A stretch of DNA of 25,058 nucleotides from Psammoneis japonica (Eukaryota): NCBI GenBank assembly GCA_008632985.1, contig QPGO01000257.1:62001-87058 (forward strand). Direction: 5' to 3'. The position numbers and the translations under genes are program-made. A model generated the notes under the pieces. It saw only the letters and a list, made by a program, of their open reading frames with translations. It did not search any database and had not been told where the DNA came from. Below, in pieces: positions 360 through 21,360 of the stretch (its first letter is position 1; every line of letters begins with the position of its first letter).

Positions 360-3173
360 TCAATCATTATCTTCCTCCTCGTGCAATGACTCCAGTTGAC
401 GCTTATTGTCTGTCTCCTCGCTCTCGACTGGTACACCTTTTCGATCAACTGTGTTTGAAGTGGCAACAGAATCATCTTCCGTATTCTTATCGCCGCTTTT
501 CAATGCTTTCAGCTCTTCGCGCAGAGCCAGATTTTGCATCTCGAGATCATCAATTTTCGTCTGCAATGACGTGGGGTCTGTAGCTGAATGATTTGATCCC
601 CTTATGCCCCGCCTCAATGAATGGCTCGATGATCCACTGAAAGGTTCAGATACCCCAGTAATACGGACGGAGGAAGAATCATTTGGCAATCGCACTGACG
701 GAGTGCTAGACCTACTTGTATTCAAGCGTCTAGTAGGAAAGTACTTCTCTTGAAGTACCCGATAAATCTTGGGCCAAATAACCATGACTGGCGTAGAAGT
801 AGAAAGCACGAACACAAAGAAAACCCGAGTAAGGTAGGCGGCATCCTTGGACACGTCGTCAAGCACGAAAATGAGTGGTAGACCGACCAACCATGACTGA
901 AGGTGTGCGAATACAGCGAAGAAGACCCACATGGATTCAGAATATTCAGACTGTATTTCTCTTGTTTTCCATGCGACAACCATTGTCATTACGGTGATCG
1001 TGGCAAGCAGGGCAAGCAATGGAACTACCCATGCGGCCAAGTTTGTATCAACAGTCTGACAGTCTCCGTAGGTAATTTCTCTACCGGCGGAATCCGGGTC
1101 AAGAAATCTTCGCACCCATGACAATGGATCAACCAACTGCCAAACAATAAGTACCACAAGGCAGAGTGTGACAAGTACAAGAAACGGTATCATTGCCCGG
1201 GTCACCGTAACAGTTCTTCGTCGAATAGAAAAAATCTTTTTTATCCTCCAGAGTTTGCAATACATCGCGCAGTACATCACCATGTAGCCTATGGTGAAGA
1301 ACCATGGTACGGCTGCGCATCCCCTGTTCAGCTTCGTTTGAGACCATCCATCGCTCTCATCGAACGACACGAACATAACTGATGACATGAGTACCGAGGA
1401 CCCAACGCACAGCAAACCAAGAAAGAAAGGTTGAGATGCCTTGAGAATACTGGTATTTCTCTTCCAGATAACCCATACCAAATAAGAAAATGAAATAACG
1501 TATGATAGAGCCACAAGCATAAACCCAGCCATTTGTACAGAGTTGGAAAGAAAGTTTGGCTCTATGACGGTTACCAGCACCTCCGGCTCATCTGGGGTCC
1601 CGTCGTAGTAAAGGAATTCGGCGACTTCAGTCCACTCTCCTCTTTCGTACAGAGATGATAGCACTGCCTCGATCCTGGGAAACATGGAAGTGAAATAGGC
1701 CTTTTGAAATGATATCTAAAAATAGCATTGACGTGTTCCAGGAACGTACCTTCCTCCATCAGACCTCAAATTGTAAATTCCAAACCTAGAATCGTCACTG
1801 CTAACTTTCCCATCAACCATTTCCACTTCTCCTGAAGCACCGTCAAAACTAAATTCTCCACGTTTCAAGAAATCTTCTTTGCTACAGGTTCTCAAACAAT
1901 GGGTTATTACCGCATCATAGACAAAGGATGAATATGGCACGGGATCATTAGATTGGAAGAAATCCGACTCGGCAGGAGTGAAATCGGGCATGCCACGCTG
2001 CGGGTGAATAGCGTTCATCTTTTCAACTTTACTGGAATCTTGGGCTCTCCACGTATCGAGAAATGGATCGCCTATCGGCTCATAAATAAAGGGATCATGA
2101 TGTGTGTAGATCGCAGCACCTCGAAGTAAACGCTCTAAGGCTGAACCCACTTCAAGCTCCAAGGGCTCCGGGTTCAGATGGGTCAATCCGGGAAAGAGGT
2201 CTCCATTCAGGATCCAGAACCAGTCGGGACCCACGACATTGTATTCTATCGCAAGCTCAGCTAGTTCTTGCAGAACCTCAAAATTGTCACTAAGAACAAA
2301 AATGGTGTGCATGCCGTCTTCCTCGACTTCTTCGGCGGCGTCCTCCAGGATGCTATAGCTATCCTCACGGCCAGTGCCATCGCCGCTTCCCGAACCGCTT
2401 CCCGACATTGATTGAAGGCGTCGATTTGATCCCTGGGGTATCTTCGCCCCCTCCTGTTCAGTCGCTGGCGGTAACAAATTGTCAGGCAAAACATTGACCC
2501 TGGTTTCTTTAAACTTCCTGGTGGTGCGCAAGATATTCTTGAGAGCCTCGTTGCCGCTGTCAAACAAGAGCTGCATATATCCTCGATGCTTAAATTTGGA
2601 AATCAGTGCCTTGGCTAGCACATCGACATCACCCACAAGGTTTCTTTCGGTAGCTAAACTAGAAGACCCGGTTCCAGGTGGAACATTGTATTCGCTGAAA
2701 AGTATCTGAGGAACATTCCAAAATTCTGCCCACGCCGCCGTTGCAGTCACCATGTCAGGAATTGGTGGGCCCACAATGCCGAGTGTATCCGTCAAGTTGG
2801 TGTCCACGAACCGTGCTAGGGCGGTCGGTGCATTAAGACTTGTATCAATGGCTTTTAGAAACAGATCCTCGATATTGCTACTGTTGCTATTGCACATGGT
2901 TGACAGTTCCTTGACAATCACTGGATTGCGGGTGTTCTGAAATAAAACGAAAGAAAAAGGTTGTAAGAGCAAGAGTTTCACTTTCGAAATCACAATATTT
3001 ATTAAGGGCGAGAAACGTACGCAATGGTCCAGAGCTAGAGCTGCAGAGGCCAGATGAGCGACACTTGACGGGTTTTCAAAAGGCAAGAGAGTCAGCAACT
3101 GAGATGCATCCGCTAGCAGAGAACTGCACCACTGCAAAACAATCACTGCAAGAACTGATGTTCTCCGCATCAT
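360..3173 (-). CDS. Class C (GABA-B-like, 7tm_3) G-protein-coupled receptor, ~884 aa; exons 3173-3021, 2936-1750, 1674-360
   Basis: Signal peptide MMRRTSVLAVIVLQW is followed by a periplasmic-binding/Venus-flytrap-like domain (GIVGP, WNVPQI, YDAV, FDGASGEV). The 7TM part has class C motifs (ASQPFFLGLLCVG, CAAVPWFFTIG, KLWRI, WQLVDPLSW, EYSES, WPKI) and there is a C-terminal coiled coil. Introns 3020-2937 (84 nt, GTACGT..TTTCAG) and 1749-1675 (75 nt, GTACGT..CCCAG) join ORFs 1716-3527 and 360-1685 in frame (2655 nt). Confidence 0.88.
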
Positions 3174-3637
3174 TGTCCGTTGAAACTGATTGTACCCTGG
3201 AGCCTTAGCAAGGAAGATTGTGGTGACAAAACAGGTGCAACGACCCGACAGAAGCTGCTCCGTGATCGGTGACATCCTTATTTCGGTGCGACATATAGAC
3301 TCCGCCCTTGGGAGTTTGGAGTTTGCCGTTGTCAGAATTTCCAAATTTGAAACTTCCGGCAGTGCACATGTGGACAATGGACAGCTTGCCGAGTTCATTT
3401 TTGGTATGCCAGTACAAAGTTGTGTAGATCTGTACATACCAGTTTCTACGTACGTTTGTACTGCAATGGCAGTTGGACCCATCAGCTCATTCAAATTTGT
3501 ACGGCGACCTACCCGTGCTTGCCGCACTCACAATGGTGATGATACGACGGCGTTGTTTGTACTCTGACGCTACCTCTCCTCATCATATCTCCCCTTACCG
3601 TGGAGTTTAAGAATGTAACTGACAATCGCTTCAAGAA

Positions 3638-3981
3638 AATGGCCGGTTGTGACCGGGTCACAGGGGTTTTGTTTCGCCATGAAAAGACGCCGTTGGACCC
3701 ATCAACGTGACGTACAATGGTCGGTGTTGACATTGAGACGACAAGTTGACCCTATTTGAAGTGTCTTTAGCGCTGTCATGCGTTGGCATGCAGCATGGAA
3801 GACTCAGCAATGGCCGGTCGTGACCGAGTTGCAGGGGTTTTGTTTCGCCACAAAAAGACGCCGTTGGACCCATCAACATGACGCACAATGGTCGGTGTTG
3901 GAATTGCGACAATGCATTGATCCTATTTGAAGTATCCTTGGCGGTGTTACGACGTCAGTGTTCAGCATGGAAGACTCAGCA
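3638..3981 (+). repeat. Tandem duplication, 171-bp unit x2
   Basis: AATGGCCGGT...AAAAGACGCCGTTGGACCCATCAAC...CCTATTTGAAGT...CAGCATGGAAGACTCAGCA starts at 3638 and again at 3809. Confidence 0.9.
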
Positions 3982-4204
3982 GTTCTCAATGTGGTGGCAT
4001 GATGGTGGAGTTAGCTGGAGGCCAAGGAGGACTTGCCCTGAATGTGTTTCTGTGGATGCAAGAACCGCAAATGACGCATTGGCCCCATTGGAAGTTGCTT
4101 GAGCAGCACTGTGGCAAACACAACCGGTGTGGACGACTCAGCAGAGCTCAAATTGGTGGCATGACAGTGAGTTCAGCCTGATCCCAAGGAGGGCTTGTTC
4201 TGAA
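3973..4204 (+). repeat. Second, more diverged direct repeat (~70-bp core, ~162-bp spacing)
   Basis: GACTCAGCAG..CTCAA..TGGTGGCATGA...CCAAGGAGG.CTTG..CTGAA occurs at ~3973 and ~4135. Confidence 0.7.
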
Positions 4205-5933
4205 AAGGTCGCTCATCCAGGAACTGTGACTGGCTGCTTTGTCGTCCTTTTCTCCATGCAGCAGCAGTTTAGAGGGCTCTGCTTTGTGGGTGCAAACAAG
4301 CAACACTTCCAAAAATGTTTGTGGTTGTGGATGTCAACCAGTCACATGACAAATCTGTGACTGAGATGGAAATGCTGGAGAGCTGTTGAGTCGGCGGCGT
4401 TGTCCTCTTGTTGGACGAGCTAGAAGTCTCATCATTTGCTCTCCTGCTGCAGAGAGCATTGTGTGAATTGAACAGCAACTTGACACAGGAGATGACAGTG
4501 ACATTGGTGGAGGAGTTGGATGTGGTTGTCATTTGAGAATGATTCACAGTGGGGGGCGCAGGCCTCTGTTACGACCCAACAACATGCAAACAGCTGTGCA
4601 GTCCATTGAAGCTTCTGACCAGCTTTGAAGGCGACACATTTTTGTCTGTCAATGGACCAACCATCCACATGTTGTGTGACAACAATGTTTTGGCATTTTT
4701 GCTTTACATTCACAGTGTGCCAGCAACGCCATTTGCTCTCTCGCAAACTCTTCGTGCTTCGTGTTGTTCTCGTGTTGGAGCTCGCAGAGTTCGTGATGTT
4801 CGTGTGCTTGCATGAGAAACTGTCGCATGTAGAAGCATGTTGACTTTCCACTGGTGTGCCAAAAATGAAACTCGGCAAGCTGTCCATCGGCAATCGGCAT
4901 GTGTCCCACCCCTGCACAGGGAAGAGCACAATGGATGCACCGGCAATTTGGGCGTTCATGAAATTTTCATGTGCTGTTGTTCAACAAAATTTGGCATTGT
5001 TTGCACACAAAAAATGGTGTTGGCAGAGACAATTGAAGGCAACACCAAAGGCTTTGTTCTTTCCTTCACTTCTGACAGTCATCACTTTGGTGTCGCCACT
5101 GCCCGCCGGCCTTGGAGCACGTTCCAGCCCCAGGTGACGTGCAAAACGATGCTCCCTTTTGAGCACAATTTGTGCGAGCTTTGCACTTTGAGGTCGTCAA
5201 TTGAGGGCACTTGTGAGTTCTGGCTTTTGTGTTTGATTGGAGTGCAAACATTTGCGCAACTTTTTTCATCAGCACTCAAGCCCTCACAGGGTGTGTTGCA
5301 AAAATTTTTCTGTGGCGGAAATGATGCTGGCTGCATGTCAGACCAGCCTCCACTTGGGCCACGACTTTGCCCCCGTTGCATCACATGAGCGGCATGACAG
5401 ATTGTGCTGCCAAGTGTGGCAAGTGTGGAGATGGCCTGGGAACAGATGTTTTCATGCGCTGCACCATGATTTCTTGCATGCACTTTTTTTCACATTCCAT
5501 TTGTTCATTCTTTCAAACACAAGGCCTTTTTTGTGTTCTGTTTTTGACTTTTCTGTGGAACATGCCCTCGCACACTCCACATCAAAGTGTCAGCGATCGG
5601 AGTGCGATGGGGTCACACTCCGTTCCGACAACCAAGACAGCGGCACTCCATTTTCATGTGGAATGTGTTGAGGCCTCTTTGCATTCCATCATGACCAAGA
5701 AGAATGTCAAGCCTGTGTCTTCTGTGCACAGCAGCACTCCATGCACAGGAGGACAGAGGTCAACGCACTCTCACATTCTCTGGCATCGAAGTGTGATGAT
5801 GCCAACACGCTTGTGTCATTTGGCACACAGCATGGAATGAGAACATTGCAGCCAAGGCAATGAACATCGGCATGGTTCACGACACCACTGCTTGAATTCT
5901 CTCTGTTCATCTCTCTGTCACTGCGATGATTCA

Positions 5934-5957
5934 AACAACAACAACAACAACAACAAC
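5934..5957 (+). repeat. (AAC)8 microsatellite
   Basis: Eight perfect AAC units. Confidence 0.9.
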
Positions 5958-8025
5958 ATCAAGATGGGCAGGGGATGGGGGCGTTGTCATGGGGGCCCCA
6001 GATTGCACCTGAGTTTTTGTGTCATCTTTTGGTCACAGAAAATGTTGTTCAATTCATTCATTTCTGAATTTGCATCAAATTCTCTGTTGCATTTAGCACA
6101 ACAATGCAGAAGTGATGGTTGAGGTCCTCAAACAGAATTGGAACGAGAATCCTGAAATCTGCACTTGCCCCATTCATTGCAACATGGCACACACTCAAAC
6201 ACACACTTTCAAAAATGAGTGAAGCAACAGTTCGAACCTCAGGAGTGACCGATGGACACAGAAAACAATGTGGAAAACATTTGCAGTCACATTTGATGTT
6301 CATTTGACAACACCTGGCAAAACATCATTTGGCTCTGCATGTTTTCTTTTTCGGTGTAGAACACACGACGATTGACGCCAGAGGAGAGGAGTCTCATTGG
6401 ATGCAGTTTTTTCTCTCACTTCTCACCCGCTCTTGCACAAACCAGAAACACAACAGAGCTGCAGCATCTGAAGCAACAACAGCAAAGAATGGCAGCACAT
6501 GATTGGGCGGTTTGATGGGTGATGATTGTGGCATGCTTGACGGCAAGTTGTGATGGGATTGCTCAGAACTTCAAAGTTTGCTTGCACTTGCATTTTCTTT
6601 TCTCTCTTTGCTGTTGAGGTTTGTTTTCCACAGGGTTCTGATTCCAAGCATGGCTGCTCTCTGCAGCTGAGAGAGTGGTGCTGCATTGCTGCCTGCTCCA
6701 TTTTCTAATGACAGAGATGTGTGGGCAGTCGTGTCCATCAACAGCCTGCAAGTGCCACCTTTTTTGTTTTTTCTGCAACCTTGAACCTGTTGCTCACTTT
6801 TTACTTTGACTCATTGTGCTCATGTTTGGGAAAGGTTGAGGCACCCCTTGTCATCCAGCAGGCAACCAAGATCATCAAAAGAAGAAATGCATCATTCTGA
6901 GATTCGGCTGAGCGGTGCTTCGAAGCAATCGGTCAATCAAGGGAGGGCAGAGCACCAGCATGGGTGGAGCAGGAGTTCTTGTTCAATGGAAATGCAGCAG
7001 CAGCACCATGGCTTCACTTTAGAATTTCACTTCATTCCACTGCAAGCTCTGCATCACACGCTTTGGTTGAGTGCAAGGAATCCACAAACAGAGGGCAGCA
7101 AAAGGAGTGGCAAATGGAGCACAAAACAAATGGCCTCTTTTCAACAAAAGAAGTGATGAAATGGGCACAGGCATCACTCATCTAATCAAAATTGTGCAGT
7201 GCACACATCCAGTTTTTGTTGTTTTTTGCATCATTTCTGCAAGCACTGCATTGCTGACGAGTGCAAACAATGTCATTTCTTGTTTGACCTCAAATGCTGT
7301 GTTTGTTGTTTCCGCAAAGGAGTCCATGAGACATGAAGACACATCGGACATTTTCCCACACAAAGGCCTGACATCATCTTCCACCAATTTGGTTGAGCCT
7401 TTGACGCCAAATGAGGCCGGTGTCAGGCAGCTCTGATGCACGCCTGCCTGGAAAGACCTCTGTGACATCGCTGCTGATGCAAGTTCAGATCACACTGCAT
7501 GTTTGAATGAAAGTCATTTGAGTGCAGTTGTTGCATTTCTTTGTCAACAATGTCTGACAAATGAGCAATTGTCCAGAACAACAAATGACAAACACTGGAT
7601 CGGTGACCCCTGCACGCAAATTGCGCCCCAGGTGCAGAGTGTGGCACATGCGCTGGAATGTGATGCAGATTTTGACGAGGCTTTTTTGTTCTGCACCCTG
7701 TTGCTCGCAATCCATTTTGAGGCCTTTCTTGAAGGAGCCACACACACATTCCATGTGATTCCATGGATTCTTGTTTCCTGTGCAAGTGTGATGAAGCTCA
7801 GGAATTTTGCACTTTGCAGCATGGGCACAGGTTGTTTTTGTGCCCTGCACACAGAAAAAATCCAAAGCAAGCTCTGGGATGCACCCACTCTCCATTGTGA
7901 GTCTGTGTGTTGACCATTCTTTGCATGTGCACTTGCACGCACCCAAAGGCAACAGCAATCTTTTGGCTCTCAGAGTCATTTTGGCCAGCGCAGCAGCCAA
8001 ATTCAATTGGCGCTGATGTGAGCCA

Positions 8026-8421
8026 GACGCGTTCCAGCCCTAGGTGGGAGCTCGTAGTGCTGACGTGTGACAACAATAATTTTTATCATCCGTCGTATGT
8101 TTCGTACGTAGATTTCTACGTGTGACATTTAAAAAAAATTGTCCAGACTCGCTGTTTTGCGAAGCCCCAGACGTTTTATGTGACATATTTATAGAAACAA
8201 TAATGCGCCAGTTACATTCTTCAATGTCTGAAGAATGTAACTGGCTAAGTAAAAAATGATGTACTTCAATCATGTGCGAGTTTGTGCGTTCGCAAAATTG
8301 CCTCATTTTCTGTTGGCGATCATTGACATTTAAATTACCGTATAATTTTACTACGGAGCTCGCACGTAGAAGTCTACGGGCCCAATGTCACACGGATTCC
8401 CACCTACGTCTGGAACGCGTC
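8026..8421. mobile_element. MITE, 396 bp, with imperfect ~24-bp TIRs and 4-bp TSD GCCA
   Basis: Left end is GACGCGTTCCAGCCCTAGGTGGGA; the reverse complement of the right end is GACGCGTTCCAGACGTAGGTGGGA. GCCA flanks both sides (8022-8025, 8422-8425). It has subterminal GTGTGACA motifs and an AT-rich non-coding interior. Confidence 0.85.
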
Positions 8422-9445
8422 GCCAACAGAAAATTTTGTTTGGCACTTCTTGTCATGCGACATGTGAAACGCAAAAATTCTGGGTGTCTTTCGAAATCAC
8501 ATCCTTGCAATCTGCAGTGCCCTCAAGAAAGCAATGGCGATGCATTGTTTTGCATCATGGGAGGATGCTCAGCCAAACCCCAGCTGCCCTTGCATCAGGA
8601 TCAACTGGTTGTGGGCCAGCATCTCCACAGGTGAATTTTTTTTGTGGGTTGCAGCGCCGCAGCACTTGAGAACAAAATCAATGACGCCAACAGCATCTGC
8701 ACCAGAGCAGCTGATGTTGCAGCAAATGGGGGTTGGGGAGTGTCAATCTTTGTCCCACTTTGGCTGATGCCATCCAAAGCAAACTGTCAAGTTTGCAATT
8801 GGCAATGTCTCAGAGTGACACATCCCTGAAGTTTGCCAATCAGGCTGGAGCCTTTGGGTGGCAAAAGACAAGATTGTGGCTTTGTCCTTCATCAGAGCAT
8901 GCAATGCAGTGATCCAGACCTCCATTCTCATGATGATGTTTTTTCCTTTTGCAGTTAAAAATTCAATGGTTTCAAACCTCATCAGTTGTGTGCGTGGCGA
9001 CAATTTGTCATCCATGAAAGATGAGCTTTGTTGCTGTGGAGCCCCCCAACCATCCTGTGAGGTGACACCACTCACTGTGAAACAGCCAACCCTTTCCCTG
9101 TGAGAGTGCCCGCCCTCCATTCCTGCAAAACCTGCAAATTAAAATCATTTTTTGTGTTGCAAAATGTCCTGTTTTGTTGTTTGCATTTCATTTGAATGAT
9201 GCTGACAGAGACAACGCCATGATGCCTGAGGCTTGCCATCCAGAGACACAAGCCCAGCGGAGATGCTGCTGACAACACTCCAGTCTGCCCCTGCATGGGA
9301 GTTGAGCTGAGCAGCAGGGGACCAAAGAAGGTGTCATGCGCCAGTGCAAAGGGGAGAGGCAAAGCCTGTCAGACAAATCTGGACAAGAGCAGTGCCAAAA
9401 AAATGCAGGCAAAGAGCCGTCTTCTCCACCCTGCATGTCTCACCT

Positions 9446-9718
9446 TTTGCCATCAAGAGCATGTGTGATGGCTTGGTTGTGCATGATTTGAAGGGAGGGT
9501 TCTCCACAATTGCCACCTCGAACCACAATGGCATTGGCAACTTGCAGTGTTGTCTCAATGTCTTGTGCATTTGACGCTTGTCAATTCCGGAGCAAGAGAC
9601 CGACCAGGCCACAACAACGGTGGGTGTTGCAATGGTCCTCAACAAATGCCTTGGTTGCAGTGGCCCACAATTGAGAGTCGTCTTGATCAAACTCAGCATC
9701 CATCATTCCTTGCAGTGT
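9446..9718 (-). pseudogene. Pseudogene fragment paralogous to the juxtamembrane extracellular domain of the FG-GAP gene (22664-22930)
   Basis: My translation TLQGMMDAEFDQDDSQLWATATKAFVEDHCNTHRCCGLVGLLLRN*QASNAQDIETTLQVANAIVVRGGNCGEPSLQIMHNQAITH aligns with SLVGMDTEFDTVDTDLWTATTELFVEDFYNTRRRRRGLSTLLRVLQVSNIQNMETTLSVTKTSVVRNGNGTNSSLQVIYNQAVTY. This frame is not in the ORF track. Confidence 0.85.
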
Positions 9719-11741
9719 GTGGCAAGAAAAGTGTCATTGCAAGAAACAAACACCCGTCAGATTCTTGCTGAGAACAACTGACAAGTTGAGACACAAGATG
9801 ACTGCAGCTCCTGCTCCAGATGCATCGGACTTGCCACCAACGGATGTGGACAACATCAATGATGTGGGCACACCTCCAAGCCATGCACAGCAAACATTGA
9901 CCTCTGCTCCACCAAATGAGGGAGGCTCACAAACAACAAGTGCCACTTCTGAAGCTTCTGCAGCTGACTCAGGATCGCCAACCCCAATGGTCACAACACA
10001 CTCATGTTGTGGACAGTTCATCAATGACACATTTGGAGTGTGGACCAGAAACAGCAGAGAGAAGCTCAAGCATCCTCCAATGGGTTGCCTCCCCACTCTC
10101 TGCCTCTGCAGTCTTTCTGGATCAGTGCACAAGAATTGGAGAAGATGGGTGCAACATCAGCAAACACATGAAAAACAAGTGAACCTCTTTTTGCACATGC
10201 CACCTTGTTTGAAGATTGTCATTTGTGGTGACTTGCGATGACTCTAGATGCAAAACTCTGACATGCGCAATCAATGCTGCAGAAAAAATTGTGATGTGCG
10301 TGCACACAACAACACGCTGTTTCGGCATTCTGGATGATGATTTTTTGACGTGGCAGATTCGTGACAGCACACTCACGATCTTGAAACTCAAGCGATGCCC
10401 CCCATTCAAAAACCGTCTTTGCCAGCCATGAGGACAGCAGGTCTCGCCATGCATTGAGCTGCTGTCATGGGCCAATGGGGCAATGTCTTTCACCGCCATG
10501 GAAGGTTGCCGGCTTTGCAGATTTTGAGATCACACGCAGAGTCCACGTGAATCACAACAGCGCACACTCTCATTTTTTTAATTTTGGGGAGAGGGTGCAC
10601 TGTCATGAAGTGTGCAGGAAATTGCACATGTAAAAAAAAATGCTGAAAATGCCGCAGACCAATGGGCTGTGAAGCATGAAGAAATTTTTTTAAATGAGGG
10701 TGGGTCACGTGTCAAGTGCTGCATGAAGTGCACTGCACACATGCAAAGACACACGCGCGTGAGTGGGGAAGACAAAGTTAAAACCAAGTTCAAATTGATG
10801 ACCATCAAAAGGAAACCAAACCATGCATCACATTTTGACCCCCAACCAAATTAAACATTGCACGCATTTGATCGAAGCTTGTGCAAGAAAAGCAAGTGAG
10901 ACATCAGATGAAATGCACAAAACAGTTGAATTTTGTCGAGCACTTTTGCTGGCAATTTTTAAATTTTGCTTGTCAACAATTTTAACAGCGCACATTAAAA
11001 AATTGACAAAGGAAAGTGGAAACCACCACATTGCAGCCTCTGATGTTTGTGTTCCACACCAATCACATCAGGAGGCAGGAGGAGCATTTGGTGCAAGGGA
11101 TGGAAAGAGCCTGGATTTTTGATGTTCAGGCTCAAGGGACCAGAGCATTCTGAAATTGCTCATGTCAGAGGCGAGCTTTTCAAATCCTTTCCACATGAGC
11201 TTGTGTCACATTTGACATTGTTTGTTGATCTGAGCACCTCGTGTTTGGTGTTTGATGGTGTCTTGAGTGTTTCCAAGGCACTTGTCCAAATCCTCAACTG
11301 TGGGCAAGAGTCTGCAGGACGACTCTGTTGAGACAGGTGGTGCACTGGAATTTCTGATGTGGCACTTGAGTTCATCCAACATGCTGCTGATGCAACAAAC
11401 CCTTGGGATGCAGCGTCAAGAACTTGACATGATCAGCTGGCAACCCTGTCTGAGCTGTTGGGTGAGTCTGCTGTGGGCAGGTTGCAAGTGAAACACCAAC
11501 TCAAAGTCGGCACCACAGCCCACCTCAAGCTGAATGACTGCATCAATCATGCCACTGGCTCTGAAGAAGAGGAAAATGAGTTTCAAAAAAGAAAAACCCA
11601 TCGCGGCATTGGCACTCTCCACAATCGCCTTTTCATTTGGCTTCACATCTGCCAAGTCTTCCTTGAGAGCAACAAGCAATTTCCTGCTGCTGATCCTCTC
11701 CTTCAATCATTCTCTTTTGTCTTCCATGGAACCACAAATGC

Positions 11742-12533
11742 TCATCTGTCTGAGGTTTGACTCTCTGTCAAACAGTTCACCAAAGTTTGTTGCTTCATCT
11801 GTGGCCTCTGGCTGGAAATCAATTGACAAAAGGTCATGATTGCCTGCACCCATTCCTGTTTCAGACAGTCTTGTCTTTGTTTCTCTGTCTTTGGGCAACA
11901 TTTTTCCCACAGTTGTTTGCAGACAAGCCAACTCCTTGTCCAGTTTCTCAACAAATGTTTCATCACCAATCTCTTGGTGGTGGCAAAAAGCCACTCGTTG
12001 TTGCCTCTGTGCAGCTCTTTGCACCTTTGGCATTTCTTGGCTTTTGGCACAGCACAGATGTCAGATTTGTGTGGGCAGCATGGGCAAAAGTGTTCAGCCA
12101 CCTCACAAGCTCCACCTTTGTGAAGGCCCTTTTGATGGGCAATGTGGTCACCAGTGTGTGATGGTTTCAGAGTTTCTGTGTCTTCATTCAAAGATTCCTC
12201 CCCACAGTCATTCATGAATTCATGGAAATCTTCAAACAGATTGAGTGTCTCATGGCTCTCCTGACCTGTCATCACTTGAAATGGGAAACAGCAGCAGCTG
12301 GATTGTGCTGTTGCTGCACTGCTTGTGACCACCAAGCTGGCAAGTTTGTCTGTTGGTTTGACACCTGCCATGATGTTCTTGTCACACTTGTTGAGTGTCA
12401 TGCTGTCAACAGCAGCACTCACTTTTCCACTCTTCTCCTGGCTGCTTTGTCCCACAGGCGGTGTGCTTTTGACAATGTGGCGAGTGTTGGGGTTGAACAT
12501 TGGCACGAGTGCTTTCCCGTCTTGTGCTGCCAC
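11742..12533 (-). pseudogene. Degenerate DDE transposase fragment with RAG1/Transib-like motif order
   Basis: QSSCCCFPFQVMTGQESHETL resembles RAG1 [22 protein letters not shown]. Downstream TGD..AHQKGL.KGG.....FCPCC resembles the second catalytic Asp plus CxxC region. The third catalytic region is not recognisable. Confidence 0.45.
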
Positions 12534-12949
12534 CTCAACTTTTTTTGCTGTGCCACACAGAGCTCAGGTCAATGGCATCACACCATGAAAATGCCTGGCA
12601 CCACCACTTTCCACTGACTGAAGAACCGCAACTCCTGAGTGTGACAGCTTTGATCCAGCAAGATCCATGGCTCTTAGAAGTTTAGAGGGTTTGAGTGCAT
12701 TCTCCCCAAACCATTTCCAAGGCCGCTTGACATGCTTCCACAGAAGTCATCTGAGAAAACAGTGCCCACCACTGTTGTGTTGGTCTTCTTCATGCTGACC
12801 TTGTTGCATTGGCAGTTTGACCACTCTTCTAAAAAGGTTCGCAGCTCTTCCTTTGTGTCCACTTCATTGCTTGATGCACCCTCATCTTCCTCAGATTCTT
12901 CCTCTTTTTTTTTTCTTCAATGTCGTCACCATCATCTTCTTTTTCTTCT

Positions 12950-13135
12950 AAAGAAAAAAAAAAACAAAAAACAAAAAACCAAACCCAATTTAAAGTGCTG
13001 TTGCACCTTTGCCCAGCAACGCTGGCTCCAGCCAACCCACACCTCCAGTGCACCCAGTGAGGGGTGCGGCAGAAGCGGACTTGATTGGCCTGAATCAGCA
13101 TCTCCCTGAGGAGATGCCCGATGGAAATGGTTGGT
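12950..13135 (-). mobile_element. 3'-terminal fragment of a LINE related to the element at 19420-20780
   Basis: The reverse complement aligns with ~20610-20780 (stem-loop, GGCCAAT, CTGCCGCACCC, GTGCACTGG, CAGCACT) and ends in a T-rich (TTTTTG) tail. Confidence 0.7.
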
Positions 13136-13184
13136 GCAGAGAGCACAATGACACTTGAAGTTTGCTGCAGCATTGCTGGTGACA

Positions 13185-13616
13185 TGCAGCATGCCTTGCT
13201 GCTGGACAACACGGCGAGACCGTGCACAAGCCTCTTGCCCGTGGCAATGCAGCATTGTCAACACGCACCTGGGAAGCATGACCACAGGAGGGCGTGGCTC
13301 CAGGTCTCAGGCAATTCCAGAAGGGTGCTAAGAGAGCATCCGTGTGAAGCACACCAGCCCGTCGTCTGGCCCATGATGGTGGCGTGATTCCACATGATGA
13401 CATCACTCGTGCACAGCGCGTGATGGCTTGATTCGCACGATCCACAATGCGAACGCACGATCGATTTGATGCGATCCAAATGCGAACGAACAGGGATTTG
13501 GCAAGATTCCCTGTTCACACGATCCCATTTTCTCTGCTCTAAACTAGCTCACAATTTTCACAACGACAAAGTCGCAACACATCTTCTTTTTCAGCGCCCA
13601 GCACACACACAGGGCA
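13185..13616 (+). repeat. 5' LTR (432 bp)
   Basis: TGCAG...GGGCA; about 90% identical to 18054-18486. Confidence 0.95.
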
Positions 13617-13677
13617 CAGTGATGTTGCTCCCGCATGTTGTGCGAGGCAACGAAATCTACAGAAACAAAACTACGAA

Positions 13678-14754
13678 ATGTTGGCAGGACCGACAAATCT
13701 TAAAACGACCATGAAGAAGCGGATTGAGCCGCCAATTCCGTTCGCACGGCCGGAGAAGAAAGAGCTGCAGCAGGGCGAGTGCCAGACGTTCAAGCTGCGT
13801 AACAACCCTGCTGATCCGGACAGTCCAACACACGAGATGGGCATTCCGCACCTTTCCACGGCTACATGCGAGACACTCCTGATCTTTCTGCGCAACGTAG
13901 ATCGCGTGCATGAAGGACAAAACATCACGACTGGGCCAGCGAAATTTGCCCTCATGCGTGACCCACTGCAAGGTGATGCTCTGACGTCATTTAACAATGC
14001 CGCTGACAAGCAGGCATCCCAAACCAACGCCACGCACGCAGCATGCGTCGCGAAGCTAAAGGAAAGCATCTTCCCACATGGGGCGGCACTGTTGCAGAAG
14101 CGTTGTCTGAGGCGCTTCATGCGCAAGCCCGCAGAGGTTTCTGCTCGTGACTGCGTCGCGAGGGCTGTTGAAATTAACGGCTGTGTCTCTCAGTTTCCAC
14201 CCGTGATGGAGGATGGAGAAGCACAGGCACCATCACCCAATGACAAACTGTGCGACATGTTCGAGTGCGGTGTGCCGAACGCATGGCAGAAATTCATGAC
14301 GCCACAGAATTTTGACCCGTTGGCGCATGCTGTCACCGAATTTGTGCAGTTCTGCGAGCGCATTGAGCAGGTCGAGCTTGCCGAAGGTAACCTGGACCAA
14401 CATGCCAAGGTTCCACGCAAGCGGGGACGTAGAACGGACAATCCTGAGTCGTTGATTACGACCCAACGGAACACCCAGAAGTCATGCATGCCACACGGGA
14501 CCAACTGTGGACATCATGCGGAGGATTGCCGTCAGCTCAAGCACCACACAAAACGTGTCAAGACTGGACATTCCAATGACGGAGGCAGCAAACCCAGTGC
14601 AAAACCCTGGAATGAGGAAGACATTGATGCTCTCATCAGATCGAAGGTCGAGGAGTTCTTTGCCAATGCTCAGAAAAAGCGCAAGGCACGCGAGGAGGAG
14701 CTCAATCACTTCCGCGACCTCAACTCAAGCGATTCCGAAGATTCGGGCACTTGA
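13678..14754 (+). pseudogene. gag: Gag (358 aa, open frame but hypermutated; contains no Tyr)
   Basis: It follows the 5' LTR and has a LRRFMRKP/EIN...FPP segment, a zinc-knuckle-like CMPHGTNCGHHAEDC and an acidic C-terminus. Confidence 0.85.
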
Positions 14755-17700
14755 GAAGGGGGCCCACACGACACAGGCAGCTTCAATGCATTGGACGAAT
14801 GCACAAATGAACAACTGAATTACCATCGTACACGTGTTGCAGGCCAATCCTGCAAACGAGTTAAAAAGACTCATCTTGCTCCAATCTTGTTCACAACTGT
14901 GAATGCCAAACATGGCAAGGGCAAGACTCAAACCATTAAGGCACTGCCAGATAGTGGCGCCAGCAGCACTCTACTCGACAGTCGACACTGCAAACGTCTG
15001 CGAAGCCATTCAACGGCTGAGACAAACTGGACTACGGTAGCAGGCTCGTTTAGTACGTCTAACGACTGTACCGTTAAATTTCGGTTACCAGAATTATCCG
15101 AAACTGCAGAACTTAAACATACCGTCCACGTACACAACGGAAAGTTGGGCAAGTACGATATGATTATTGGACGTGACATTCTGGAGACACAAGGCATTGA
15201 TATTGTCTTCTCTAAACAGATGATAGAGTGGCCATTAGTCAATGGAGAAGTACCAATGAGGCACGTAGATGCTACGGTAGAAACCTCCTTCTATCTTCAA
15301 GATCCAGAAGCCTTATCTTCGGAAACCAACCGGATTTCGCGTATTTTAGACGCTAAGTACGCGCCGGCCTGCCTTGAGGACATAACGCGATAGGCAATAG
15401 GATTTTTCTATAGTTCAATAAAACGACCTTTTGGCATTATTGAAACGCCATGAGTCCTTATTTGATGGGACATTAGGAGAATGGAAGGGAGAACCCTACC
15501 ATATCCAACTCAAGGAGGGTGTAGAACCATACCACGCTCGTCCGTATAAAGTACCTCGTGCGTACGAAGCTACGCTACGTAAAGAAGTAGAACGCCTAGT
15601 GCGCATCGGTGTTCTCAAACGCGTTAACCGATCCCAATGGGCAGCTCCATCATTTATCACACCGAAGAAAGATTTAACGGTGCGCTTTATTGATGATTTC
15701 AGAGAGCTGAATAAACGGATCAAGCGATTGCCTTGTCCGATTCCTCATGTCCAAGACATGCCACTTGAGCTCGAAGGCTTTGTGTGGGCCACATCGCTGG
15801 ACCCCAAATGTGGGCTGTCATCACATCCGATTGGATGCTGACAGCAAGAAGCTCTGCACGCTCATCTTCCCGTGGGGCAAGCATGAGATGCAGGCATTGC
15901 CCATGGGATTGTGCAACTCGCCAGACATTTTCCAAGAACGCATGTCAGGCTCATTTGAAGATCTGTCGTTCGTTCGAACGCACTTAGATGACCTTCTCGT
16001 CGTGACGAAAGGCACCCATGAAGATCACCTCAACAAACTTGAAGAAGTTTTGTTGAGGGTCCAGAAAGCAGGACTAAAAGTCAACGCAACTAAATCTCAC
16101 TTCTGTCAAACCCAATTAGAATGCTTGGGTTGTCCAGTTGACAGAGACGGAACACGACCAACACCTGATAAAGTCGACGCCATTGAGCGAATCGCGACCC
16201 CAGCCAATGAACGCGACCTGCGCTCATTTGTTGGCATGGTGAACTGCCACCGTGACATGTGGACCAGACGTTCTGAAGTCTTGGCTCTGCCAACACGACT
16301 CGTGAGCGAGACTGTTGAGTGGAAGTGGACGTCCGTTGAAGACGAGGCGTTCGAAACCGTTGAACGGGTGACATCGGATGATGTTTTGTTGTCACATCCT
16401 GATTTTAACAAACCCTTTGAGGTGCATGCCGATGCCTCTAAATGTCAATTGGGAGCAGTTGCATCCCAAGACAATAAACCCATCGCCTTTTACACCAGAA
16501 AGCTTGGTGGTGCACAATTAAATTGCACAACAACGGAGAGAGAATCGCTCGCCATTGTGGAGACGTTGAAAGAATTTCGAATGATTCTCCTTGGTCATCG
16601 TGCAATTGCACACTGATCATAAAAATCTTGTGCACAAAGCATTCAATGCTGAGCGCGTCATGCGCTGGCGGCCAACATGTGAAGAATGCGGTCCCGAATT
16701 ACGCTGTGTTGAGGGTGCCCACAACCCAGTCGCTGATGCTCTTAGTCGCCTTCGGCTGGCACCCAGCTTGCCTTCCGAGGCCAATCCGGATGTAAAAGAC
16801 ACTCCATCGAGTCGTCCTTTGCATGAAGCTTTTAATGCAGACGTGCAAGATGAGCTGTCTCTGCCTGTTGGCTTCAAGCGCATTCAAAAAGCACAACAAA
16901 AGGACAAGCGCCCACTCTCATCAGCCAAGGACTCGTCCGACCACTCCATTCGCGCGCATCGTGGGGGAGGGTCATCACGACAGTTAATCTGTCACAAGGA
17001 CAAAATCACAGCACCACAGTCATTGCATTGTTCCGCTAACTGAATGGTGCCACAAGACACTGTGTCATCCAGGTGAGACACGCACGGAAATGTCTGTTGC
17101 CCAGCACTTCCATTGGCCTGGCATGAGGTCTACGGTGCATTCTACGTGCGTCAAGTGCGATCGATGCCAGAAGACAAAATGCCGAACGCAGCATTGTGGG
17201 AAGCTGCCAGAAAAGGTCGCAGAGATGATTCCATGGGAGACTCCATGCACAGATGTGATGGGGCCACATAAAATTCAAAGACGCGGAAAGGACACTTTGC
17301 AATTGTGGGCAGTCACAATGATTGACCCAGCAACCGGGTGGTTTGAGATTAAAGAAGTGTCTGCGAAACGCGCAGACGTCGCAGCAAACGTCGTGGAACA
17401 AACATGGCCATGCAGATGTCCGTGGCCAACCCAGGTGGTTCATGACCGTGGGACAGAATTCATGGCAGAATTTAGCCAGATGATTAAAAATGACTGTGGG
17501 ATTTTGAAGAAACCCATGAGCAAACGGAATCCACAAGCGAGTGCCATGGTGGAACGTGCACACCAGACACTTGGCAACATGGTGTGTTCCTTTTCAGCAC
17601 AGGATGTGGAGCTGGACGAAGATGACCCATGGAGTGGCATCCTCTCCGCAGTGGCCTTCGCTGTTAGAGCTGCGGCACATGCGACCACGCATGCAAGTCC

Positions 17701-18013
17701 CATGCAATTGGTCTTCAGACGTGATGCGGTTTCATCTGTTGCTCATCGTGCCAAGTGGAAGCACATAGAAACCAGAAAGCAGAAGCTTGTCCACTTGAAC
17801 AACAAACGTGAAAATCAGAAACGCAAGGAGTGTCAACATGCTGCAGGGCAATTGGCACTTGTCAAACAGGAACAATCCTCGAAATGCGGTTCTGACAGCC
17901 ATGCAGGACCCGCCAGAATTGTCCGCGTGTGTGACAACGGCACGTTGCGTGTCCAGAACGGAGCGCTGACAGACACGTGCAATCTACGGCAGATTGCACC
18001 CCATCACCAGTGA
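14755..18013 (+). pseudogene. pol: Pol: aspartic protease, reverse transcriptase, RNase H, integrase; broken by stops and frameshifts (~15391-15421, ~15802, ~16600, ~17035)
   Basis: PR: ALPDSGAS and DMIIGRD. RT: WAAPSF, DFRELNK, LPMGL, HLDDLLV. RH: ADAS..QLGAV, TTTERE, TDHKNL, NPVADALSRL. INT: H..LCHPG..C..C, then D(VMGP), D(RGTEF), E(RAHQTL). No chromodomain. Confidence 0.95.
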
Positions 18014-18043
18014 GACATCCTGTCACTTGACGGCCCTGATCAT

Positions 18044-18051
18044 GGGGGGAG
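18044..18051 (+). other. Polypurine tract
   Basis: GGGGGGAG ending 2 nt upstream of the 3' LTR. Confidence 0.8.
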
Positions 18052-18053
18052 TG

Positions 18054-18486
18054 TGCAGTGTGCCTCGCCACTGGACAACACGGCGAGACTGTGCATGAGC
18101 CTCTTGTGCGTGGCAACACAGTGTTGTCAACACGTGCCTGGGAAGCACGACCACAGGAGGGCGTGGCTCTGGGTCTCAGGCAGTTCCAGAAGGATGCCAA
18201 GAGAGCATCCGTGTGAAGCACACTGGCCCGTCGTCTGGCCCACGATGGCAGCGTGATTCCACACGATGACATCACTCGTGCATGGCGCATGATGGCTTGA
18301 TTCGCACGATCCACAATGCGAATGCACGGTCGATTTGATGCGATCCAAATGCAAACGAACAGGGATTTGGCAAGATTCCCCATTCACATGATCCCATTTT
18401 CTCTGCTCTAAACCCAGCTCACAATTTTCACAACGACAAAGTCGCAACACATCTTCTTTTTCAGCGCCCAGCACATGCATGGGGCA
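18054..18486 (+). repeat. 3' LTR (433 bp)
   Basis: TGCAG...GGGCA followed by TSD GACA. Confidence 0.95.
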
Positions 18487-19419
18487 GACACACACGTTGG
18501 TTGCACCACCACCACAGAGGACAGCTGCATTTGGGAAAAATTCACACAAGAGCCACAAAGGGAGCCAAAAGGAAGACAAAGGAAGAGCGCCAAACCACTG
18601 GCTGTCCCTCATCAAGTGGGAAACCTCATTCAAACCTTGAAGAAATGAAACAATGAAAGATCACTGCATGCAACCGAGAGCTTGATTTGCCAGTGAGAGA
18701 GGGAGAGTTTGCCCAGAACTGGGAGACAAGAAATGGGAGTGCTTGATGATTCGATGAGTCGGTCATCAGGAAAGACATTTTTCACACATGGAAGCTGCAC
18801 CGGATCTTGCACAGAAATGCCGTTGTGCACAGCAAATGGATGGAAATCACTTGTTGCCGAAGGGAGGCTCATGCTCACACTCGTCAGCATCACAGCAGAA
18901 GCAGCGCTTTCACCACACAAGCAGCGAAGGACTTGATTGGCTGATGGGGACAAAGAGAGTCATTGGAAATGGAAGAGCACTGGCGTGAGAAGCTTGGAGA
19001 CTTGACGAAATCTGTGTAGAAAATTTCTTGGATCTGGAGAAAATGATGAAAAGAGTCAACATGCATGCGACCCATGAGGAGTCAATGCCAGTTGTTTTCC
19101 ACTTGGCAACATTGCTTGGCATGCTGAAATGAAGGCACGCCATTGACAGAAAGGGCCAGCATGGTCGTGGGAGACCCAGCAAAAACTGCCGTCTGAGAAG
19201 GGTGACATCAGTGTGAGAGCGCACGCAGAAACACACACAGGGTTTCTTGGTGGGTGGCTGCCGCAGAATTGTTCTTTTTCTTCTAAAGATTCTTCATTGT
19301 TGTCATCTTGTTGGCTTGCCTCTGCCACCATCTTTCCTTCCAGAGCCTCCTTCTCTTTTTTGGGCCACCCTTGTTTTTGCGGTTCATTGCTGCAGCAGCT
19401 TTGCGGTGGTGGGTCATCA

Positions 19420-20780
19420 CATCTGATTTGTGGCGGCATGTCATCCATGAGATCTTTGCTTCATTGACAAGCTTGGAGGCCCAACATGACGGACACCCTG
19501 CAAGCAATGTTGTCGACATGAAGTGGATTAAAAGCCATCAGGATGACAACACTCCTTTTGAGTCCCTCCCATTTCCAGCAAAATTGAATGTCAGAGCTGA
19601 CAGATTGGCAGGTCTGCTTCAGGGTCAATGCACTGGAGATGCCTCAATGGCCCCCCACATGCCCCATTGCTCTGCATTGCCAAACGTCCAGCCGGCATCA
19701 GTGAACTCGAAGTTTAAATCAGTTCTCCATTGCAAAGCTTCCAGCACAGCCCTGATGCAACACATGAAGGAGAAGTGCAGATGGTCTGACTCAGTGCGCG
19801 AATCTGTTGATTGGAGAGTGCATTCCAAACTGATGTCTTGCAACATCCGACGAAAGGTGAGCACCGTGAAATTGGTCCAAGATTTGCTGCTGACGAACAA
19901 GATTATCCACAGACATGATCCCACACGCCCCGACTGCTGCATGCATTGCCAACACCCCCTTGAAGATGGGGATCACATTCTGCGTTGCGCTCACAATGAA
20001 TCATGGCGGTGCACGTTTCTCCAAGGATTGCGGAAGAAATGTGATGACATGCATGCACCCCTGTCTGTGCGAGACCTGTTGTCACATGCCTTGGAAGGTT
20101 GGTTCAACAAGGAATTGCTTTGTTCTGCCCACGTCCATCACAGCATCACAGAGTTGTTTCGATCTCAAGACGACATCGGTTGGCGTCACATTTTCAGCAG
20201 GTGTGTTTCTTCATTGTGGAACAAGTCACAAATGCCACACTTGGTGTCCTCTGGCTTGTGTTGCTCCTTGTCCGATAAAGACAAAAGATTAGACTGGGCG
20301 GCAACAATTGGCAGTTGCGTGTGGTCACAATGGCGGGAATTGTGGGACTCCCACAATGACGCAGTGCACGGACATGATTCCGAGACGAGAAAGTCTTTGC
20401 AACGATGGGGTGCAGAGGCGGAGGTTAAAGAAATTTGCTCAAGGGCAGACGAGCACTTGGCCCGTGACTGAGCAGAGTTGTTTGATTCAGCAGATGAACA
20501 TCTCACCCATTCCACCCACAGACTCCGAAATTGGCTCGCCGCGGCAAAGCCAATGTTCAAGTCGAGCATCCGAGAGGCCCGGCGTCCAGCTGTCAGAGGC
20601 ACGCACACCATTGCAAGCTGCTTTGGTGTGGCATCACCCGAGGGTGATGCCGATCTTGGCCAATTGTTGCATGCTCCTGCCGCACCCAGTGCACTGGGAG
20701 TGTGGGCTGGCTTGTTGCCGGAGTTGCAGGGTGGAAGCGTGGCAGCACTCAAAGTTGGATTTTGGGTTTTGTTTTGATTT
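19420..20780 (+). mobile_element. 5'-truncated non-LTR retrotransposon (LINE with RNase H and C-terminal CCHC; diatom Ambal-like type)
   Basis: RNase H C-terminal motif WIKSHQDD...AKLNVRADRLA, zinc knuckle CMHC..LEDGDHILRC, Q..IGW and W..HN..VHG. There is an internal TGA at 20469; the ORF ends near TIASCF, followed by a 3' UTR and T-rich tail. No Tyr in the 387-aa ORF. Confidence 0.8.
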
Positions 20781-21360
20781 GTGGTGGCATGCTTGATGCT
20801 TCATCTCCAGCTTCTGTGTGGGGCCAATCAACAATGTGTGGTTGACTTCATGCTGACACCTCACACTGCTGCACTTTGCCTTGCCACCAAGGAGATGCTT
20901 CTCCTTGTCCCACAGGTCACAGTTGTGGCACAGAACATGTGGGCAATCTCAAAATGCAGTGCACCTGTTGATGCCACAGTTGCAGCAAGCAACAACAGCA
21001 CATCCCCTTCTTTGAAGCATGCAGCTGGTGGATGGCCATGTGTGAGAACTCTGGCTTGGCTTGGCTGCTCTGCTCTTGCCCTTGAGACCGTTGGGGAGCT
21101 GGGGGGTGGCTGAGCCAGAATGTCCAGCAATTCTTCCAGCAAGCCTCTTGCTGGCATGCAGTGCAGCCAGAGCCATTGTGCTCATCTCATGTCTCTTCTG
21201 CATCGGCATGTTCCGCATCTCGTCTGCTCTTTTTGGAAACTGGGCTGGCAATTTCTGCAGGTTCCCACGCAGGAGGATGCACTGAGAATGTTGACGTCCC
21301 CAACCCAAATCAGAACACCGTCTTAGCCAGTTCTGTTTCGGTGAAAAACGGACTTGACTC

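Follow-up and report, generated by a model that had tools for sequence, protein, structure and literature searches.

A dead copy of a surface-protein domain in a TpA-erased, repeat-rich tract of Psammoneis japonica

The stretch of DNA analyzed here, 25,058 nucleotides (nt) of Psammoneis japonica contig QPGO01000257.1 (positions 62,001 to 87,058 of the forward strand; hereafter the window), carries a gene with FG-GAP repeats and, on the minus strand of a nearby repeat-rich tract, a fragment related to one domain of that gene. An earlier note on this DNA had read the fragment, at 9446–9718, as a duplicate of the neighbouring gene that was destroyed by the same process as the retroelements, in a manner that resembles fungal repeat-induced point mutation (RIP). 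The questions raised by this locus are whether the fragment is a copy of a host gene, which changes ruined it, and whether it was struck as a duplicate or for the place where it lies. The fragment turns out to be a host-type domain of a surface protein, present as a dead copy (the relic) and bearing the same rewriting of TA to TG or CA, and of CG to TG or CA, as the DNA around it; outgroup domains and a closer paralog, both described below, give the direction of the changes. The reading preferred here, to which we assign a probability of roughly 0.7, is that this dead domain copy was rewritten in place at TpA and CpG in the repeat-rich tract, and was hit for its location and not for its duplication.

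Homology and mutational signature of the relic

Comparison of the 667-residue FG-GAP frame with the translated window (tblastn) gave a single match outside the gene itself, between 9703–9461 on the minus strand and residues 74–154 (22676–22918). This match was gapless, with 40 of 81 residues identical and 50 of 81 positive (E = 2e-18; the runner-up had E = 1.4), and 156 of the 243 nucleotides were identical (64%). When transitions were collapsed in a purine/pyrimidine code, 9415–9703 matched 22676–22966 with 83.5% identity over 291 columns, the strongest match between different loci of the window, the long terminal repeat (LTR) pair of a retroelement excepted. A profile of 11 domain segments from ten homologs (P0004–P0013), built without the FG-GAP gene and used below as the outgroup set, matched the relic at 9694–9455 (independent E-value, iE, 9.9e-5; 11.3 bits; profile positions 8–83) and the FG-GAP gene at iE 4.1e-28. 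Adding the gene to the profile brought the relic to iE 2.1e-9 and 26.2 bits. The paralogy with the FG-GAP gene proposed in the earlier note, and the position given there for it, were borne out by both the window-wide tblastn and the outgroup profile.

Weaker in-frame likeness continues beyond the clear homology core (9415–9703) in both directions, with an N-glycosylation-type motif upstream and Pro-Phe and Leu-Arg pairs at matching spacing downstream, and the relic was therefore placed, as its probable span, at 9338–9769 on the minus strand. It corresponds to one extracellular domain of 144 codons in one reading frame, with no frameshift seen. No FG-GAP repeats were found after the relic domain by tblastn of the window or by a family scan of its open frames, and nothing beside the relic matched a profile that was built from the C-terminal anchors and tails of six homologs. 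A sequence-index search of other DNA stretches returned none resembling the domain or the relic. A single-protein scan of metagenomes yielded one locus, which showed a short motif match only and normal TpA, and was dropped.

The relic reading frame is interrupted by three in-frame TGA stops on the minus strand, at codons 12 (9734–9736), 63 (9581–9583) and 110 (9440–9442). Since codon 63 is TTA (Leu) in both the FG-GAP gene and the closer paralog, the stop at 9581–9583 arose by a T>G transversion and does not belong to the TpA signature. The 432 nt of the relic contain no TA (Poisson chance of none, 2e-10) and nine CG (observed/expected ratio, O/E, 0.34), and its flanks hold two TA in 838 nt and one in 731 nt. 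The intact homologous domain of the FG-GAP gene (22634–23056, plus strand, 423 nt) has 22 TA (O/E 0.79) and 30 CG (O/E 1.22). The composition of the encoded residues is shifted accordingly: the relic has no Tyr, eight His and nine Cys, the gene's domain four Tyr, one His and no Cys, and each of the 11 outgroup segments 4–7 Tyr, 0–1 His and 0–1 Cys.

In the 243 aligned nucleotides, 17 TA of the gene face none in the relic, where 11 of the 17 read CA (six) or TG (five); nine of the gene's 19 CG likewise read CA or TG. In the reverse direction there are no TA-type and two CG-type changes. Altogether the two sequences differ at 87 positions, comprising 20 signature changes (11 at TA and nine at CG sites), 30 other transitions and 37 transversions. 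The transversions fall at codon positions 1, 2 and 3 in numbers of 10, 8 and 19, which suggests that part of the divergence took place under selection.

Three columns hold Tyr in nine, ten and ten of the 11 outgroups, respectively, and in the FG-GAP gene; the relic has Cys (TGC), His (CAC) and His (CAT), each one TpA-site transition away from TAY. At a fourth, aromatic column (eight Phe, two Tyr and one Ile among the outgroups) the relic again has His. None of the 12 intact sequences carries His or Cys in any of these four columns, so that intact paralogs with the relic's residues, which would have spoken against a mutational origin, were absent from the set. With its conserved Tyr columns lost and three TGA stops, the relic fails as an intact family member. 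As for the individual replacements listed in the earlier note, the alignment of relic and gene upholds FVEDFYN>FVEDHCN (FY>HC), the two Y>H changes, I>M and also RRRRR>HRCC. VSN>ASN had been counted as a TA loss and is not one: GTG in the gene (GTC in the closer paralog) became GCG, creating a CpG.

No sense codon can become a stop through a change of TpA to TpG or CpA; the sole stop obtainable is TGA, from TAA. The relic's frame stayed long because the TpA process cannot create stop codons.

A relative closer than the neighbouring gene was found among the contigs of four public sequencing runs, aligned to 7900–10700 at 80% likeness. Two contigs of run X1, of 228 nt (9439–9666) and 697 nt (8397–9094), do not differ from the assembly by a single letter, and the TA-free sequence of the relic is therefore no assembly slip. 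The closer paralog is represented by record 5 of run X1 (304 nt, on 9448–9689) and record 13 of run X3 (623 nt, on 9448–9694), each of which differs from the relic by 33 letters and three gaps, over up to 247 nt. These contigs belong to a paralog and not to an allele, because both ends diverge from the window; the loose ends are family-like on the minus strand, the run of Arg codons included. Among the 23 of the 33 differences that were listed, the paralog has TA against TG or CA in the relic at nine and CG against TG or CA at six; eight are of other kinds (four transitions and four transversions), with no signature change in the opposite direction (binomial p = 6e-5). The paralog's letters restore the relic's His-Cys to Tyr-Tyr, one His to Tyr and two Cys to Arg (CGT>TGT twice), and outgroup P0006 shares its Tyr-Tyr-Asn-Thr-Arg run.

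On these alignments, the direction of the changes is fixed by the 11 outgroup domains and by the closer paralog, and the nearest relative of the relic is this paralog elsewhere in the same organism, not the neighbouring gene. The claim of a duplicate of the neighbour has to be given up on the same grounds: nucleotide identity is 64% with 37 transversions, the paralog is closer, and the domain is all that relic and gene have in common. Within 7900–10700 the X3 contigs cover just 9404–9779, which is not taken as evidence of transcription or of silence. At 9481 and 9630, which lie in Tyr codons of the paralog, the paralog's letter accounts for 249 of 549 and 125 of 530 of the summed X1 depth, a sum that is no copy number; the depth of the relic's own X1 contig is 39.6.

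The TpA-erased tract and changes in DNA after integration

The relic is enclosed in a gene-free, repeat-rich tract of about 17 kb (about 3950–21320), in which no recognisable host gene was found. TpA O/E is 0.04–0.05 in 4000–8000, 8500–13100 and 18624–21250, CpG O/E in the tract is 0.26–0.44, and TpG and CpA are raised to about 1.65–2.1. The segment around the relic, 8500–13100, has 16 TA (O/E 0.05) and a CG O/E of 0.26. The erasure is confined by region, as TpA O/E is 0.62 in the gene on the left and 0.79 in the domain of the FG-GAP gene. Both strands of 8500–13100 contain 250 TGA, 25 TAA and six TAG; the long false open frames found in all six frames of this segment arise because the loss of TA leaves mostly TGA stops. 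This is a hazard for annotation, since gene finders could call false genes in TA-erased DNA, where long frames are kept and TGA stops remain.

The tract contains a degenerate Ty3/gypsy element on the plus strand (13181–18623) with protease, reverse transcriptase, RNase H and integrase regions, whose LTRs (5′ LTR, 13190–13612; 3′ LTR, 18059–18486; both on the plus strand) serve as a clock for changes after integration. Between the two LTRs there are 43 differences in 424 columns; interchanges among TA, CG, TG and CA make up 37 of them, including 13 sites with CA against TG, two with TA against CA and nine with CG against TG or CA. The LTRs of one element are identical at integration; these changes consequently arose in DNA after it. 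The process works on DNA in place and needs neither reverse transcription nor RNA editing, and the earlier note was right in not tying it to reverse transcription. The gypsy element has a TpA O/E of 0.33 with CpG near normal (0.87), and its older flanks are depleted of both, from which it follows that TpA erasure is separate from CpG decay and seems to be the faster of the two.

Within the pol region of the gypsy element, a patch of 750 nt from the protease to the start of the reverse transcriptase (15000–15750) has normal TpA, with 56 TA, and 0–6 TA per 250 nt are present on both sides of it. The element is bracketed by an inverted match between 12968–13136 (minus strand) and 20612–20775 (171 columns, 84% in purine/pyrimidine code), which may be part of an older element into which the gypsy element inserted.

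An unmutated inverted-repeat element of 396 bp lies in mid-tract (8026–8421), with 24-nt terminal inverted repeats (92% complementary), 28 TA (O/E 0.85) and a CpG O/E of 1.48. Word depths in run X1 sum to 30,000–205,000 there, as compared with about 35–40 for unique contigs. The element is thus very abundant, and it either postdates the erasure or is exempt from it. An open frame directly to its left (7795–8013, plus strand) matches FAD_binding_8 weakly (E = 4.1e-4; 20.9 bits against a cut-off of 22), with an HP..I.S-type motif, and is possibly a second host-gene relic, of ferric reductase/NOX type, severed by the inverted-repeat element; of 25 further frames scanned for this candidate none was supportive. 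TA density declines at the left edge of the tract, and there 3638–4409 is a tandem repeat whose unit measures about 171 nt (81% identity over 617 columns in purine/pyrimidine code). Beyond this edge lies a family-C G-protein-coupled receptor (GPCR) gene (360–3527, minus strand; 7tm_3, E = 3.6e-29, and ANF_receptor), the left-hand gene mentioned above, with a CpG O/E of 0.86; for this GPCR the protein atlas returned a rank-3 cluster whose commonest taxon is Bacillariophyta.

The neighbouring FG-GAP gene and the domain family

The main open frame of the FG-GAP_2 gene (22457–24460, plus strand; E = 4.2e-36) encodes a membrane anchor, the domain shared with the relic, a Pro/Thr/Ser linker and FG-GAP_2 stretches, of which Pfam matches six; one more FG.S.SL unit, the seventh, was recognised by eye. 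The start of the gene must lie upstream of this frame, because no Met precedes the membrane anchor. The 291 nt homologous to the relic have TpA and CpG O/E of 0.93 and 1.31, among the highest in the window. Towards the 3′ end, TpA O/E drops from 0.8–0.9 to 0.05 (a single TA) in 24107–24406, with CpG staying at 0.79, and past the stop codon a second TpA-erased tract begins. In the 3′ third of the gene (23657–24460), codons ending in T and C stand at 5:23 before codons starting with A and at 90:26 otherwise (p = 7e-9). The corresponding ratios in the 5′ third are 14:21 and 39:33 (p = 0.22). The pattern of the 3′ third looks like TpA>CpA changes leaking into a live gene and passed only at synonymous sites. 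The gene thereby serves as a natural control: it is an intact relative 13 kb from the relic, spared in its homologous part and marked at synonymous sites beside the second tract.

In an exhaustive search of 1.84 billion representatives, the domain of the gene gave 11 hits at E ≤ 0.001. P0003, a 1630-residue repeat protein, was considered as a family member, matched only query residues 60–101 and was excluded from the alignment. In the ten homologs of the outgroup set the domain stands beside a membrane anchor, in tandem, or together with fasciclin (in P0004). Intact members of the family thus combine it with FG-GAP repeats, with fasciclin or with an anchor at the C-terminus. A word-index protein search with gene residues 30–200 yielded 1542 candidates, none of them at E ≤ 0.001, and a cluster look-up of the ten homologs returned 'hypothetical protein' only and no taxa. 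No Pfam family, SEA (PF01390) included, matched the domain in the gene or in the ten homologs.

The domain model predicted from an eight-sequence alignment (predicted local distance difference test score, pLDDT, 83.4; predicted template modelling score, pTM, 0.80) has the order beta-alpha-beta-beta-alpha-alpha. Its top structural matches were protocadherin-15 MAD12 (Z 6.9, root-mean-square deviation, rmsd, 3.8, 92 residues aligned) and TMPRSS6 (Z 6.8, rmsd 3.0, 96 aligned), with 2e7v, an SEA domain (Z 6.5, rmsd 3.4, 91 residues), and the MUC16 SEA domain (Z 6.2, rmsd 3.3, 94 residues) among the further ones; these chain ranges are membrane-adjacent domains of SEA or MAD type. VIA-align to SEA/MAD-type chains gave Z 6.2–6.9 and rmsd 3.0–3.9 over all, and a Z below 8 can reflect a common arrangement. 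The lead in the protein atlas was a SEA cluster (score 0.80), and Foldseek found no match of the domain model in the PDB at E ≤ 0.001. The predicted fold of this domain of about 130 residues looks SEA-like rather than SEA, and the family appears to be a lineage-restricted extracellular one. With the SEA and MAD domains of animal mucins, TMPRSS proteases, protocadherin-15 and adhesion GPCRs it shares the predicted alpha/beta sandwich and the membrane-adjacent position; it differs from them in having no Pfam match, 4–12% sequence identity and Z-scores of 6.2–6.9. The SEA-like fold, the membrane anchor, the FG-GAP repeats and fasciclin were the grounds for regarding this as a host surface-protein family.

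Position or duplication, and comparison with known systems

In the preferred reading, a domain copy of a host family lies in the gene-free, repeat-rich tract, presumably a silenced repeat domain, where a process acting at the level of DNA has changed almost all TpA to TpG or CpA (A:T>G:C, on either strand) and the decay of CpG has likewise yielded TpG or CpA. All Tyr codons of the relic thus became His or Cys, Arg codons of the type CGY Cys or His, and ATA ATG; its three stops, all TGA, include at least one from an ordinary transversion. The proposal that the relic was destroyed by the same process as its surroundings thus stands in that the TpA and CpG rewriting of the tract mainly ruined it, and falls in that this was not the sole cause, the stop at 9581–9583 being transversional. 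Chemically, the process could consist in the deamination of adenine or a comparable lesion directed at TpA, while at CpG 5-methylcytosine would be deaminated.

We infer that its location in a silenced repeat domain, and not its being a duplicate, exposed the relic to the process. Targeting by location is favoured over a RIP-like recognition of repeats because the homologous segment of the neighbouring gene is spared, the 3′ end of that gene is marked, and TA and CG persist in the closer paralog at the sites listed. RIP, known from Neurospora and other ascomycetes, changes C to T with CpA becoming TpA, raises TpA and mutates both copies of a duplication; it is the textbook genome defence that also limits gene duplication. 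If the cell had likewise seen the duplicated segment as a repeat and mutated it, thereby curbing growth of the family, one would point to the facts that the relic is a duplicate, that relic-type letters occur at two Tyr codons in other contigs, which could be more dead copies, and that its non-signature distance to the paralog is small (eight of the 23 listed differences, or about 12 of 33 over 247 nt by extrapolation), so that the relic may have been more than 90% identical to its parent when hit. This is an improbable account of the locus, since, of the 23 differences listed, the 15 of signature type all read TA or CG in the paralog and the neighbour's homologous segment has its TpA O/E of 0.93, where RIP would have mutated both copies. 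Moreover, the entire 17-kb tract is erased, the relic's flanks too, while the very abundant inverted-repeat element within it is untouched, and in the gene it is the non-homologous 3′ end that bears the signal and not the homologous 5′ domain. The evidence from this window and from the read contigs favours position over homology, and the analogy with a duplication-triggered RIP drawn in the earlier note is not sustained here.

Capture of the domain fragment by a mobile element (transduplication), after which it would have been mutated as part of the element and not as a host copy, we consider unlikely as well. It would suit a domain of about 430 nt that is present alone, without anchor, tail and FG-GAP repeats, and paralog contigs that are unlike the window past 9448 and 9694. 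However, the 107 tract frames of at least 70 residues that lie outside the gypsy element gave no match to any family of transposon proteins; no terminal repeats bracket the relic, and the paralog contigs supply part of the read-contig cover of its region. A retrocopy of a hyper-edited (A>I) mRNA, in which the changes were made in RNA, has in its favour that ADAR-type editing prefers A after U, according to the discussion in a preprint (10.64898/2026.01.13.699255). Editing of a sense mRNA would give A>G only, and the two strands are affected about equally, with 6 TA>CA and 5 TA>TG relative to the gene, and 5 and 4 relative to the paralog. Neither the decay of CpG nor the equal erasure of the non-coding flanks would be explained, and the LTR pair records action after integration. 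This route is very improbable. Chance similarity, or a working gene of odd composition, is hardly worth entertaining: nothing but the long open frames of the tract speaks for it, these are a by-product of TA loss, and the match at E = 2e-18, the outgroup-profile match, the three in-frame stops and the loss of all conserved Tyr speak against it.

Several points weigh against the position-directed reading. The intactness of the paralog rests on two loose ends of 30 letters, and 23 of the 33 differences have been listed. Contigs at least 80% alike carry relic-type letters and may include more dead copies, which would suit a duplication-linked process. The relic's flanks are repeated elsewhere in the genome at 80–88% identity, as transduplication would have it. 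The 3′-end signal of the FG-GAP gene could in part be codon bias of the FG-GAP repeat region, and the predicted SEA-like fold, by which the family was in part taken for a surface one, rests on moderate Z-scores below 8 without the support of a Foldseek match.

It is conceivable, and for now speculative, that the TpA eraser is a homology-free DNA mutator directed by chromatin domains, which kills transposons, retires surplus surface-protein copies and leaks into bordering live genes. If this is true, surplus copies of fast-growing surface-protein families would be permanently retired upon landing in silenced DNA, further dead copies of the present domain may be among them, selection would pass only synonymous TA losses at the ends of live genes bordering silenced domains, and the eraser would act on the size of gene families as well as on codon usage at domain borders. 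The question of position or homology is made testable by a genome-wide survey.

Among known systems, RIP resembles the process seen here in that dense transitions in a specific context put an end to repeated DNA and can do the same to duplicated host genes. It differs in that it raises TpA, whereas here TpA is erased and CpA and TpG are raised, and in that both copies are mutated, whereas here intact relatives are spared. The decay of 5-methylcytosine at CpG has its counterpart in the CG>TG/CA changes of the relic and of the whole tract, and explains part of the pattern only, as TpA in the gypsy element is already low while CpG is near normal. RIP is premeiotic and depends on methyltransferases of the RID/DIM-2 type. 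Diatom DNMT4 is reported to be a relative of RID whose function is unknown (PMC9998398).

A process of the opposite chemistry to RIP, erasing TpA by A:T>G:C changes, is so far known from one preprint, on Bigelowiella natans (Mettrop et al., bioRxiv 10.64898/2026.01.13.699255). TpA hypermutation was observed there in two viral insertions in mutation-accumulation lines; the mutations were almost only A>G and T>C, lay without exception at TpA, where they produced TpG or CpA depending on the strand, and were regional, with TpA depletion and enrichment of CpA and TpG as the long-term trace (10.64898/2026.01.13.699255). The TpA-depleted coding sequences of B. natans include host-type Pfam domains, 24 of them 'of likely host origin' (10.64898/2026.01.13.699255). 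The words 'diatoms' and 'paralogs' do not occur in the text of the preprint, and a full-text literature search returned neither TpA erasure in diatoms nor a host-gene relic of this kind, with the limit that Tables S6–S9 of the preprint may list host-type TpA-depleted genes. The process described in that preprint and the one traced in this window agree in TpA-site transitions on either strand, in confinement to regions, and in TpA depletion with enrichment of CpA and TpG. They differ in that B. natans is a chlorarachniophyte in which rates were measured, whereas here, in another organism, there is a historical trace only, accompanied by CpG decay. As compared with the account available for B. 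natans, the present locus adds a single copy from a host-type gene family, in which the direction of the changes is resolved, beside an intact relative.

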